Origin: Octopus sinensis
Taxonomy: Eukaryota
Reading direction: 5' to 3'
NCBI RefSeq assembly: GCF_006345805.1
Contig: NW_021832347.1
Span: 1 to 31,045, forward strand
DNA length: 31,045 nucleotides
Under the pieces are notes generated by a model. That model searched no databases. It had not been told where the DNA came from and saw only the letters and a program-made list of their open reading frames with translations. The translations under genes were made by a program, and so were the position numbers. Below, piece by piece: positions 3,024 to 30,973 of the stretch; the stretch's first letter is position 1; each line of letters starts with the position of its first letter.

Positions 3024-3128
3024 TCCTCCGAAGAGATACATCTACACCGACGGACACTTCTAAACCAGTTGATAGGTATCCAGCCCGTAAGGGAACGATG
3101 CTAGATGGGTCGAAACAATTGAAGTGAT
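3024..3128 (+). ncRNA. Degenerate type I hammerhead-ribozyme-like motif (Penelope-type)
   Basis: CCGAAGA (3028-3034), stem II GATACATCTA/TAGATGGGTC, GAAA (3112-3115), palindromic CAATTG (3116-3121). The UH site reads AA. AATAAA follows at 3130. Confidence 0.6.
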
Positions 3129-3571
3129 TAATAAAATTTCTCGTAACTTTCATATTCCGTTTCTCTCATTAACCGTATGTGTGTGTGTGTGTGTGTGTGT
3201 TGGCATGGCTATAGGCAATGGGTATGTATTCCTGTGTGATTAAGAAACTTGCTGTCCAACTACGTCGTTTCGGGTTAATTTTCACTGCTCGGCGCCTTCC
3301 GCAAGTGTCATCTACGAAAGCGCCGAGTCAACCAATGACTTGACAGTGATTTTGTTAGAGGGGAACCTGTATGGAAAACTCATCACATACATATGTGTGT
3401 GAGTACATGAGTATGTGTGTGCGTGTACGTGCGTGTGTGAGTGTGTGCCTGTGTATGGGTTGGCTTTGTTCCCATCAATGATTAACAAGTGGTATTGGTG
3501 TGTTTAAGGTTCCGTAGACTAGCGGTTCAGCAAAAGCGTCCCATAAAGCAAACGCCAGACTTAAAGATATA

Positions 3572-4533
3572 GAGTGGTTGAACCAAATAATAGAAACATC
3601 TAGCATAATAGCATCGTAATTTTGAAATATCTATAAAACCGTCAAAAGCTTGTTTATTTTTAGTTTTTTTTTTATCTATTATTAGTGTTGCTTAAGTTTT
3701 TCTAAAATTGCTGTTTCTTTTCAGATATCATCAGAAAAAGATAATTAGAATTCATTAAAATGACAGATCTATAGGACTTTCAAAGAGGTTAAATTGTTGG
3801 TGCTCGTTTAGCGGGCGCTGGTGTCACGAAAGCAACCGAAATGTTTGGTGCATCAAGAAGTACTCTCTCGAAAGTAATGACAGCCTTTGAGAAAGAGGGA
3901 AAAACCTCGTCGAAACAAAACTCCGGAGCAAAACTCCGGGAGACAACCAAAACTTTCAGATAGTGACCGTCGGACTCTTACGCGAATTGTTAGAAAGTGT
4001 CACAAAAATACAGCTACCAAAATTACTGCAGAGCTTAATGACGACCTCAAGAATGGTTTCCAACGGTTTCCATTTTTGGCAGAATTATTAGTGAAGACAA
4101 TTTAAGCATTTTATCTGATCAAATTCATATTATAGTTGCAGAACTGTTTCTGAAGAGAAACGTAATTTTTCGGGATGATAATGCACCAATTCACACAGCT
4201 AAAATTGTTACTGAATGGCACGAGGAACATTCTAGTGAAGTTGAACATCTTATCTGGCCACCACAGTCCCCAGATCTCAATATTATTGAACATTTATGGT
4301 GCATTTTAGAAAACAAGTAAGGAGGTGATATCTTCCGCCATCATCTCTACAAGAACTGGGAAGTGTTTTAGCTGAAGAATGGACAAAAATTCCTTTGGAA
4401 ACAATTCAAACTTTGTACGAGTCCATACCTCGTAGAATTCAAGCTGTGATTACTGCAAAAGGCAGTCCTACCCCATGTTAAAATAAATTTGCTTGAAATT
4501 TTAAGGTGTTTTCATTATTTTGTCCAATGCTTG
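3572..4533 (+). mobile_element. Tc1-family DNA transposon, internally deleted, DD36E spacing
   Basis: Imperfect ~30-bp TIRs at 3572-3601 and 4504-4533 (19/24 identity over the inner part), TA at the left flank, transposase remnant inside. Confidence 0.92.
3760..4481 (+). pseudogene. Tc1 transposase pseudogene
   Basis: N-terminal MTDL*DFQRG*IVGARLAGAGVTKATEMFGASRSTLSKVM, then NSGRQPKLSDSDRRTLTRIVRKCHKNTATKITAELN. After a central deletion: FRDDNAPIHTAKIVTEWHEEHSSEVEHLIWPPQSPDLNIIEHLW, ending RRIQAVITAKGSPTPC*. Contains stops and a frameshifting local duplication near 3916-3942. Confidence 0.93.
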
Positions 4534-4657
4534 AATATGTACTGAGATGGATTTGTTCGACTAAACACTTCAAGGCGATGCTCCAGCATGACTGAAGTTC
4601 AATGATTGAAACAAGAATTAATGTCTTTAAGAATATCTGTAACGGATATATATAGTA

Positions 4658-4945
4658 GGCGCAGACGTAACTGTGTGGTAAGGAGTTTACTTCCGAACCA
4701 CATGATTTCAGGTTCAGCCGCACTGCGTGGAACTTTGGGCAAGTGTCTCTTACAATCGTCCGTTGATGATCAAAACCTTGTAATTGATTTTGCAGAGAGA
4801 AACTGTATAGAAGCCGTCGTATTTATATGTGTGTGTCCCTTTGTCTTGCATTTGTGCCCCAGTACTGAACTCGACTTGTTCAACTAAACCCTTCAAGCCC
4901 CAGTATGACCGCAGTCCGATGACTTTAGTAGAAGATAAAAGATGA
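4658..4945 (+). mobile_element. SINE family A, diverged and internally deleted copy
   Basis: Head GGCGCAGACGTAACTGTGTGGTAAG...GGTTCAG...TTGGGCAAGTGTCT and tail GACCGCAGTC...TAAAAGA. Confidence 0.85.
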
Positions 4946-4949
4946 AAGA

Positions 4950-5100
4950 TGTGGCTGTGTGGTAAAAAGCTTGCTTCCCAACCACATGGTTCCTGTTTCA
5001 GTCCCACTGCGTCGCACCTTCTGCAAGTGCCTTGTTCTATAACCTCAGAGCTACCAAACCCGTGTGAGTTGATTTGGTAGACAGAAACTGAAAAAAATCC
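4950..5100 (+). mobile_element. SINE family A, 5' half
   Basis: GTGGCTGTGTGGTAAAAAGCTTGCTTCCCAACCACATGGTTCC...GATTTGGTAGACAGAAACTGAAA, ending at a (TA)n tract. Confidence 0.85.
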
Positions 5101-5150
5101 TATATATATATATATATATATATATAAATCCTATATATATTGGATTTATA

Positions 5151-28082: not shown

Positions 28083-28278
28083 ATATATATATATATAAAA
28101 TAAGAAAATGGAGGAATAGATTTCTATCAATCATCAACTACTAGATAATACCAGTTCATATAATTTATTAACTAATTATTTAGGAACATCCAGTTCAAAC
28201 AGAATAATACAGAATAAAACAGTACGCATCAATGAGTAAGATAATACCATAAGAACAATACATATAAATATAAAATGG

Positions 28279-28404
28279 ATCTTACAGCTGTTTCAGCCTG
28301 TAGATAAAAGTATCTCATTATGCTCATATTAGTCAAATGTATTAAGGTAATATGCGGTTATAAATGAGTTACTTATATATATATCTCAAGGCTTCGTCAG
28401 AGAT
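28279..28404 (-). ncRNA. Type I hammerhead ribozyme, intact core, extended stem II
   Basis: Minus strand: ATCT (stem I), CTGACGA, AGCCT...89 nt...AGGCT (stem II), GAAA, CAGCTG (palindromic stem III), TA, AGAT (stem I'). Confidence 0.85.
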
Positions 28405-28851
28405 TATAAAGTACAATTATAGAGGTATAAAATGAAGATATAAAGTGAAAATATGAATATTAGAGAAGGTACACATATACAAGAATAAGTATATATACAT
28501 ATATACAAATATATATAAGTGTATATACACCTGCATATACATATATATAAGTATATACATAATAATATACATACACATAAGGTTACAGATAATCATATGT
28601 ATATGTTTATGTATGTATTATATATATACATATGGACATTCTGAATGTCTATAAGATATATATATTTAATATATATATATATATATATATATATATATAT
28701 ATATATATATATATATATGCATATACTACAAATATGCATGCACATTGAAGTGTAGGTAGGTATATGTATTTGTATATTTATGTATATGTATGTATATGTA
28801 TAAGTATTATATGTGTGTGTATTTATATTTATAACTTATGTACTTTCTAAA

Positions 28852-28975
28852 ATCTGTGACGAAGACTAGAGAAACACACAAGTACCTCAATTTCATCCAC
28901 TAATTACTTCAGTCTACTGCAGGGATAAATGTAGAATGAGGTATCTTTACCTCTTCGCTGAAACAGATGTAAGAT
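28852..28975 (+). ncRNA. Diverged hammerhead copy, inverted relative to 28279-28404
   Basis: ATCT-GTGACGA-AG...CT-GAAA-CAGATG-TA-AGAT. The stem II insert is homologous to that of the minus copy (AAGTACCTCAATTT / AATGAGGTATCTTTACCT). Confidence 0.75.
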
Positions 28976-29177
28976 ATTATCCCGATTTCTATTCCTGTAT
29001 GCTATATATTTTAATAGTTACTGATATCTTTATATATTATATATGTAAAGCATAATATGTTATACATGTATGTATATTGTTACAATTGTCCTTTTAGTAA
29101 ATAAATATATAAATTAACATAATATAAAGTCTAAAAGTTCATGAAAACCACCTATTGATCCCTCCATTTTCTTTTTG

Positions 29178-30770
29178 CTCCCTCTCTCTCCCCCCCTCTC
29201 TCTCTCTCTCTATATATATATATATATAATATATATATATATAAACATGCATATATATATATATATATATATTATATATAGATATACATATCTATATGTA
29301 TATGTAAATATACATATGTATATACACACATGTATGTATATTTATATATTTATACATATATATACACACACCCATATATGTATATACATACATTACAATA
29401 CGTATATAAATATGTTGAGTGACAGAGAACAATCAAAATCATCAGTGAAATACGCAACAGTGCTTACCCCACTCGCTGAAACCGATATAAATATGCATAC
29501 ATACGTGTGTATATGCGTGTGTATATCGATAGGTATAGTTATAAATGTATGTGTATGCTCATACACATACGTACATACACACACACACACACATATATAT
29601 ACCTATGTATATATATATATATATGTGTGTGTGTGTGTGTGTGTGTATGTGTGTGCGCACGTGTGTGTTCGCGTGTGTGTATGTGTATTGCTATTAATTG
29701 TACTGGAGCCATTCTAAGTTTAGCTTCATTAAGTTCTATTCTTCGTTTCTCTCTTTCAACTAATATCATCTTACAACAACCGTATCATCACTACAATATC
29801 TCGTCATATCTTTTCTATTCTGCCTCACCTGAATATTATCACGTAAGTTGAATGGCAAATGTAGTTAGTAGAGAAAGGAAGACTTTTATCAAGTGTAAAA
29901 ACACCACTAATTCGATATCTTATTTCAATGATGTTAGGTAAAAATTAGGTAGATGTATTGGTAGATGTTAAAATAGATACTAATAGATAGACACATACTT
30001 ACACAGATGCCTTAACAAACACATATAATGCATATAAATGTAGTATAGAATATGTAATATATGTATGTATATATATATATATATATATATATATATATAT
30101 ATATATATATATATATATATATATATATATACTATAATATATATATATATATATATATATACTTACATATTATTATATTCTTTTATTACATACACTTACC
30201 AGTACACAGATATAGTTCAATCACACACATAAATGATATATATTTTATTGTGATATTTACATATATGTTTATCAAGCAAGGATATAATATTTATGTACCT
30301 TATGTATGTATGTGTGCATATATATGTATAATGATTAAAAGTATATATATGAATCTATATATAATGTATATATACACATATATATATGCATACATGCATA
30401 TATATATATATATATATATATATATACGAGTATATATATATATATATAAATATAGTTACAAATTGAGATAGGGGTTGTAAATGCAACCCTCCATGGGATA
30501 ATATACATCCATATACTGCTACTGATTTGTTCTGCTTTTTATATTTAACCCTACAGTCTCTTATGTGGTGGTTTAATAAATTATGTGATTGAGTATCTGG
30601 TAATTGATATTTGATTTAGATGTATTTCTCCATTTTCTTATCTTGTATATATAATATATATACATTATATATATATATATATATATATATATATATATAT
30701 ATATATATATATATCTATATATATATATATATATATATATATATATATATATATACACGCACACACTCAT
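29178..30770. repeat. Compound (TA)n/(TG)n microsatellite field
   Basis: Direct reading. It accounts for the YI/CV-rich ORFs in this region. Confidence 0.9.
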
Positions 30771-30823
30771 ACAAAGAGGAAGTCGTAGGGATTTTAAGAC
30801 TTGAAGTTTTCAACCACTATGTA

Positions 30824-30973
30824 TCGTTCTAAAGATTCGTCTATTAGTTTCCGCATCATCGTACCAGAACCCTTCTCTGTATATATACATTTGTATATGC
30901 ATAGTTTATGGGTGTTAATATTGATGTAACATCTATCATATAATTATCACGAATCTGAAACAGCCGTAAACGA
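30824..30973 (+). ncRNA. Degenerate hammerhead-ribozyme-like motif
   Basis: TCGTT/AACGA (stem I), AGATTCGT/ACGAATCT (perfect 8-bp stem II), GAAA-CAGCCG-TA. The CUGANGA box is reduced to CTAA. AATAAA follows. Confidence 0.65.

Follow-up and report, generated by a model that had tools for sequence, protein, structure and literature searches.

The DNA analysed here, called the window throughout, is the whole of contig NW_021832347.1 of Octopus sinensis, a 31-kb contig (31,045 nucleotides) in a 2.72-Gb genome, and it is rich in microsatellites and short interspersed nuclear elements (SINEs). Among close relatives at the protein level are some named from Argonauta. Six hammerhead ribozyme motifs are dispersed over it. 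The families to which motifs 1 and 4 belong, together with sister subfamilies of the motif 5 family, are very probably the 3' pseudo-long terminal repeat (pLTR) ends of Hydra-clade Penelope-like elements (PLEs), which 5'-truncated insertion would have left behind. In these motifs stem II appears to be extended into an imperfect hairpin of 48-121 nt.

The preliminary description of this contig had listed six motifs of type I hammerhead topology with palindromic or near-palindromic stem III hexamers, and a pattern scan found all six, with the same hexamers, at the same places. Motif 4 (28283..28400, minus strand) is an intact type I hammerhead motif which reads CTGACGA, CAGCTG and TA, with a stem II domain of 99 nt. 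Its stem I has 4 bp and its closing stem II 5 bp, and the predicted cut lies between 28283 and 28282. It is the only one of the six in which the core, the palindrome, the UH site and both stems are all kept. Motif 1 (3028..3123, plus strand) is a type I copy with CAATTG and a 77-nt stem II domain, and its UH site, TA in most of the family, is mutated to AA. Motif 5 (28856..28971, plus strand; 97-nt stem II domain) reads GTGACGA and CAGATG where its family reads CTGACGA ... CAGCTG TA. Motif 6 (30829..30968, plus strand) is likewise mutated (CTAAAGA, CAGCCG), has a 121-nt spacer and comes from an older repeat family. Each of motifs 1, 5 and 6 is a mutated member of a repeat family that is spread over the genome. 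Motif 3 (17825..17891, minus strand) has perfect core boxes with a 48-nt spacer, a single stem-I pair and no closing stem II, and is probably an old decayed copy. Motif 2 (7168..7196, plus strand), with core U4 changed (CGGATGA), a 10-nt spacer and no stem II, is probably a chance match.

Motifs 1, 2, 5 and 6 do not have the complete hammerhead set of core, UH site and three helices, and the stems of motif 3 are decayed. The type I assignment thus holds for motif 4, while the other five are broken or doubtful. The earlier estimate of about 50-125 nt between the core boxes of five motifs agrees with our measurements from CYGANGA to GAAA (77, 48, 99, 97 and 121 nt, with 10 nt in motif 2). AATAAA follows motif 1 (at 3130) and motif 6 (at 30978), and no intact reverse transcriptase (RT) adjoins a motif within the window, as had also been noted. 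The folding z-scores of motifs 1 to 6 were -0.4, -0.1, +0.6, -2.9, -1.8 and -1.9.

We compared the window with 300 local dinucleotide shuffles. A loose descriptor without the UH site matched six times, against a mean of 2.7, and 17 of the 300 shuffles reached six. With the UH site there were five matches against 0.57, and with the additional demand of a stem I of at least 4 bp three matches against 0.013; none of the 300 shuffles reached either count. The set is therefore above chance, and one or two of the loose matches are expected to be accidental. No Rfam hammerhead was found in the window among the matches listed (150 of 378), where we saw only microsatellite-driven miRNA matches. The Rfam hammerhead model also gave no match at gathering score in eight loci, so it fails on long-stem and short-stem copies alike.

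Across the genome the motif class is abundant. The exact sequence CTGAAACAGCTGTAA occurs 2,847 times, and three times for the reversed control; CYGANGA-N45-75-GAAACAGCTGTH has 3,093 exact matches, and seven in the control. This enrichment of several hundred fold bears out the earlier suggestion of abundant Penelope-type termini with a loop-less palindromic stem III. We found close copies, at least 40 per family, for motif 4 (86-96% identical; 1,588 candidates), motif 5 (85-91%; 1,292 candidates) and motif 1 (77-83%; 1,144 candidates), and the motif 6 family is looser, with 85 candidates. Where the window copies of families 1, 4 and 5 are mutated, the majority of their relatives show the intact letters, and most members of these families have the CYGANGA/GAAA core, the UH site and three helices. 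A genome search with motif 2 returned a single match, which was motif 2 itself. The DNA search with motif 3 gave no close relative and returned only a neighbouring LINE (long interspersed nuclear element) end. Its best partner among 232 fetched boxes was weak (locus L265, score 97; mean 70, sd 7), and kinship between the two would be suggestive only.

The fetched loci fall into more than 20 sequence clusters with spacers of 10-103 nt and seven different palindromes, in a scan that required a palindrome. A scan of 82 protein-fetched loci, which overlap in part, did not demand a palindrome and found a perfect palindromic hexamer in 29 of 33 long motifs; ten shuffles gave 0.8 motifs per run and none that was perfect. 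The seven palindromes and this high share of perfect ones are evidence of covariation in stem III. Siblings with a short arm (20-29 nt) and the same CAGCTG box are common in the genome. In a separate observation, a motif with a 58-nt stem II at L077:2681-2831 (minus strand) carries its 3' box in four tandem copies of an 18-nt unit.

These counts bear on whether the motifs could be vestiges without catalytic activity, or else chance matches. In favour of this are the damage to five of the six window copies and the chance-like appearance of motif 2; moreover, PLE hammerheads are reported to be poor cleavers in vitro (PMC4209133), and insertion in vitro is reported to proceed without a need for cleavage (PMC11167929). 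However, the clusters, with their seven different palindromes, preserve the core boxes, the palindrome and the closing stems, and the excess over controls is very large. We consider this explanation very improbable.

Locus L239 informs on the identity of the elements. An open reading frame (ORF) of 960 aa is flanked there by two direct repeats, which are at least 1,558 bp long, 97.9% identical and 5,597 bp apart, and each of these two pLTRs contains a motif with an 85-nt stem II. The ORF of L238/L239 has YRDD and a C-terminal YIG endonuclease (EN). The L239 protein further shows HRIRWRIF (an RWR variant of RWK), HSDKTNN (DKT for DKG) and the linker CNCRNKNKC (CxCX5C), which reads CNCRKPKLC in L091. 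The related L091 ORF matched Pfam GIY-YIG with an E-value of 1.2e-05, and no CCHH motif was seen in the EN when the protein alignment was inspected by eye. By the same kind of comparison the L239 ORF resembles the Hydra-1_Obim protein. Hydra-clade elements are described as having RWK-like, DKT and CxCX5C motifs, a C-terminal GIY-YIG EN without CCHH, (TA)n targets and generally a length below 3 kb (Craig et al. 2021, PMC8557442). Our probable assignment to this clade follows protein motifs and architecture. In L091:2113-4869 (plus strand) we also observed a 919-aa open frame in which the 3' part of a Neptune/Poseidon-type ORF is fused in frame to a Hydra-type RT-EN, probably through a nested insertion.

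Families of the window are connected to such ORFs, so that the adjacency to Penelope RT or GIY-YIG ORFs suggested as a check was seen in families 1 and 4 and, in the case of family 5, in sister subfamilies. Family 4 occurs in L320 as motif, frameshifted ORF and motif, and RT/EN sequence lies upstream on the same strand in four of ten loci fetched with the family 4 untranslated region (UTR). In 9 of 24 fetched copies of family 1, remnants of GIY-YIG lie upstream at a distance of about 400-500 nt. Copies that resemble family 5 (74-78% identical) have an EN upstream in 3 of 18 cases, and the 100-nt subfamily stands behind the same ORF type at a distance of 1.8-2.8 kb in L246-L250. A sibling with a 20-nt stem lies about 200 nt behind a Hydra-type PLE endonuclease in L052. 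Copies vary in their 5' ends, and the upstream sequence shared within families 1 and 4 extends for 2 kb or more into an ORF. Most family 4 copies shown have (TA)n at their 3' ends, and copies often have an inverted 5'-truncated partner. Family 4 loci L002-L030 display two discrete 3' ends, about 200 nt (12 copies) and about 370 nt (22 copies) past the predicted cut, and in tandem copies the longer tail extends as far as the start of the ORF.

Covariation between subfamilies was seen in stem II. From the 85-103 nt group 20 rows were aligned, with motifs 4 and 5 of the window among them, and in this alignment 88.7% of the cells of the named structure are paired, against 30-40% in slid controls. 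Changes on both sides were found in five pairs: one at the stem II base (A-U/G-C), one U-A/A-U, and three that belong to an inner helix. The preliminary description had held that the closing stems pair despite unrelated sequence. This is wrong for motifs 4 and 5, which are homologous subfamilies that can be aligned across the whole motif. Over 17 family representatives with a spacer of at least 40 nt the predicted fold joined the spacer ends in 15, and in 0-23% of shuffles. When two copies were cofolded, the palindromes paired between strands in four of four trials. The inner helix lies about 25 nt from the core. It stays paired, with two-sided changes in three of ten pairs, and is the only helix that RNAalifold recovers by itself.

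Several observations weigh against the assignment of these motifs to Hydra-clade PLEs as active, long-armed hammerheads. The 3' UTRs measure 2-3.5 kb and the L239 unit 5,597 bp, longer than the elements below 3 kb typical of the clade, a trait which is descriptive and not diagnostic. In 30 loci chosen only by the motif pattern, no Hydra-type coding sequence was present within 1.5 kb upstream. Most copies are thus solo ends, which truncation and the length of the UTRs (up to 2-3.5 kb) account for, though some families could be non-autonomous. The majority of copies in the genome, like five of the six in the window, are decayed. No ORF link was found for motifs 3 and 6, and that of family 5 runs through sister subfamilies only. 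The covariation is limited as well. Two-sided cells numbered 38 against 12.5 in shuffles, where cells count related sequences and not independent events, and the five covarying pairs were not above the shuffles (192 of 500). Stem I showed no two-sided change within the aligned 20-row group, so that the covariation in stems proposed as a check was obtained for stem II and not for stem I, and in the youngest subfamily stem I is just 2-3 bp long. Finally, hammerhead activity is here a prediction from sequence and fold, and among the fetched copies 5' ends were not in excess at the predicted cut; in this test one query carried a microsatellite and its approximately 900 matches were ignored.

The preliminary description had favoured a non-autonomous system of solo Penelope termini or retrozyme-like units. 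A narrower form of this idea would be that some long-stem families are non-autonomous derivatives, either solo pLTRs or retrozyme-like units, mobilised by Hydra PLE proteins. The lack of Hydra coding next to the 30 pattern-picked loci is in its favour, as are a single 3' box in 47 of 60 pattern loci, the families of motifs 3 and 6 without an ORF link, and the occurrence of family 5 in ORF-free inverted pairs of about 1.4 kb. In addition, a pLTR origin has been reported for retrozymes (bioRxiv 10.64898/2026.07.22.740005). Against it stand the variable 5' ends and the continuation of families 1 and 4 upstream into the ORF. The same-strand pairs seen were of 1,038 bp (one pair, with the 5' core missing), 514 bp (two different families) and 905 bp, and short head-to-tail hammerhead units, the hallmark of a retrozyme array, were absent from the window and from the 60 pattern-fetched loci. 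A direct repeat of family 5 in L329 (about 3 kb) is a duplication with unrelated flanks. Families 1 and 4, being contiguous with RT/EN sequence, are also not non-coding as retrozymes are. The pLTR-ORF-pLTR arrangement of family 4 in L320, the GIY-YIG remnants ahead of family 1 and the sister subfamily of L239 with its intact ORF between two pLTRs contradict the original claim for the system, and we regard even the narrower form as improbable. We therefore retain the view that the motifs are truncated ends of coding Hydra-clade PLEs.

According to known PLE biology, a tandem pLTR-ORF-pLTR transcript of such an element would contain two hammerheads, whose CAGCUG palindromes could pair with each other. 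If the motifs self-cleave, they likely do so only as dimers, the model proposed for PLE hammerheads (PMC4209133; PMC6765202), and the paired hammerheads may cut slowly or with the help of a protein. The ends of the copies inform on the use of the cut. In families 4 and 5 and in the groups with arms of 85 and 100 nt, copies extend about 200-430 nt beyond the predicted cut, and those of family 1 at least 50 nt beyond it. The RNA that served as template was accordingly uncut at its 3' hammerhead. This agrees with what is reported for an anole PLE, where the hammerhead cleaved only with the element's protein and insertion in vitro did not require cleavage (PMC11167929). Cutting, if it is relevant at all, would serve the 5' end of the element RNA. 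We also considered contigs that end 4 nt past the predicted cut as a sign of cleavage, but these ends coincide with the border of a repeat that was skipped, and the site is spanned by two contigs. The contig ends therefore have no bearing on cleavage.

Since stem II lies outside the catalytic core, its extension is likely tolerated, and the long arm probably stays a duplex because the base of stem II must pair. The arm could instead be a functional domain selected in its own right, such as a site to which the RT-EN binds or an aid to dimer folding. The two-sided changes in the inner helix are in line with this, and so is the length of the arm, which follows the EN subfamily (50-53, 77, 85-87, 100 and 101-103 nt). 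The EN tree behind this comparison contains EN pieces of this genome only and is midpoint-rooted without reference proteins, so it does not give the order of events. Its rows L139, L251, L290, L326, L375 and possibly L098 were left unused because they had picked up the motif of a nested element. The strongest predicted fold belongs to the youngest subfamily (z -6.7), and the protein requirement of the anole hammerhead (PMC11167929) also fits a selected arm. On the other hand, sequence and length vary freely between families, and short-arm CAGCTG siblings are common, even behind the Hydra-type EN in L052. Their existence means that the arm is dispensable for the class and most simply is a tolerated extension kept as a duplex. 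A selected arm is possible, though we think it the less likely of the two. Speculatively, octopod Hydra-clade PLEs may have repeatedly grown stem II into a structured domain of 45-120 nt with its own job, such as docking the RT-endonuclease to switch on cleavage. If so, this would be a large natural class of long-armed hammerheads with thousands of copies in one genome, likely undercounted in other animals.

The connection of hammerheads with PLEs has been known since 2014, and for the Hydra clade since 2021. Hammerheads in PLE pLTRs, their abundance as solo ends and the palindromic stem III had all been described (PMC4209133). The elements found here resemble published Hydra-clade PLEs in the C-terminal GIY-YIG EN, the protein motifs, (TA)n, the position of a type I hammerhead on the sense strand close to the 3' end, the nearly loop-less palindromic stem III and the inverted 5'-truncated copies (PMC8557442). 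They differ in spacers of 45-121 nt, where those reported for Hydra elements reach about 26 nt (about 23 nt in Hydra-1_Obim of Octopus bimaculoides; PMC8557442 table S2), with covariation shown in the 85-103 nt group, and in a unit of about 5.6 kb with 3' UTRs of 2-3.5 kb instead of less than 3 kb (PMC8557442). Like the PLE hammerheads of the 2014 descriptor they are of type I topology with a minimal palindromic stem III and a short stem I, are scattered in great numbers as truncated solo ends, form pairs on opposite strands at distances of 100-700 bp, and fall under the dimer model. The helix II called "larger than usual" there has 7-8 bp, however, and since that descriptor limits stem II to 7 bp and loop 2 to 10 nt, long-arm motifs fall outside it. 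The prediction that short-loop searches would miss them was therefore correct, and descriptor counts of this kind in animals can miss whole families.

Non-LTR retrozymes (PMC7229834; bioRxiv 10.64898/2026.07.22.740005) are comparable in the type I hammerhead, in cleavage as dimers, which is only proposed here, and in kinship with PLEs. They are reported as short non-coding tandem repeats, whereas ours are dispersed ends of coding elements. Longer spacings, of roughly 35-53 nt, have been recorded in PLEs before: the plant elements PLE-X1_sMoe and PLE-X1_sTam have a longer loop 2, with spacers that reach about 50 nt, and were flagged as deviant, and the Naiad "HHR_half_core" has a spacing of 35-50 nt, with an octopus Naiad entry included (PMC8557442). 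These are single consensus entries, and neither families of 77-121 nt nor a covariation test were found in the text searched. A squid genome paper gives 235 Rfam hammerheads, an octopus repeat annotation gives 31 Penelope-like families with ribozymes unmentioned in the passages searched, and the "long helix II" of a viral ribozyme paper means 6-8 bp. We found no report of PLE hammerheads with a stem II of 77-121 nt in the literature searched, and relevant papers or supplements beyond that search could mention long arms. The long covarying stem II, two to five times the length described so far, is apparently an undescribed variant within a retrotransposon clade that is already known. These families bear on what hammerheads do in PLEs: recent, near-intact elements that differ mainly in the length of stem II (about 20-103 nt) provide a natural series for testing the ribozyme and the role of the arm.

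The window copies themselves extend beyond the motifs. The 3' end of a 5'-truncated Hydra-type PLE of family 1 spans 2753..3174 (plus strand) and is 74-82% identical to 24 fetched copies. The family 4 pLTR of another 5'-truncated Hydra-type PLE (28083..28604, minus strand) ends at (TA)n and is 86-96% identical to the best genomic copies. It stands head to head with a 5'-truncated family 5 3' end (28716..29180, plus strand). At 30402..30660 (minus strand) lies a 3' tail fragment of the sister subfamily with the 100-nt stem II, without its hammerhead. Head-to-head pairs of two different subfamilies recur (window 28083-29180, L206, L222 and L249) and may result from insertion into each other's AT-rich UTRs or from template switching.

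Neptune/Poseidon-type PLEs were met in several loci. Their 3' ends (L013:1118-1160, plus strand; L051; L328, minus strand, about 5120-5160) carry a short hammerhead-like motif with TTGAAAA as first box and the palindrome CCGG, and this box corresponds to the U3-A8 core variant reported for Schistosoma (PMC4209133). A connection of the long-stem motif with a Neptune/Poseidon-type EN (L282/L328) was dropped, as this element terminates at (TA)n and carries a short motif of its own. The tail-to-tail position of family 4 and Neptune/Poseidon-type ENs in L013 and L051 is an insertion into their (TA)n end.

Other features were also noted in the window. The 3' end of an unrelated LINE at 17551-17795 adjoins motif 3. 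A broken gag-like ORF at 20882-22060 (plus strand) has a weak zf-CCHC match and related ORFs in other loci, and is LINE ORF1-like. A degenerate RT suspected by eye at 7300-8200 had no match among 416 proteins. Remnants of Tc1/mariner-type transposases lie at 4042-4472 (plus strand; Pfam DDE_3) and 25409-25836 (minus strand; similar to a locus ORF). A fold-back element with inverted repeats and (TA)n flanks occupies 19060-19400, with its centre near 19260. Numerous copies of SINE-like repeats, of two or three kinds, were seen at 1-310, 4660-5650, 9164-9344, 14091-14323, 15720-16120 and 16990-17232.

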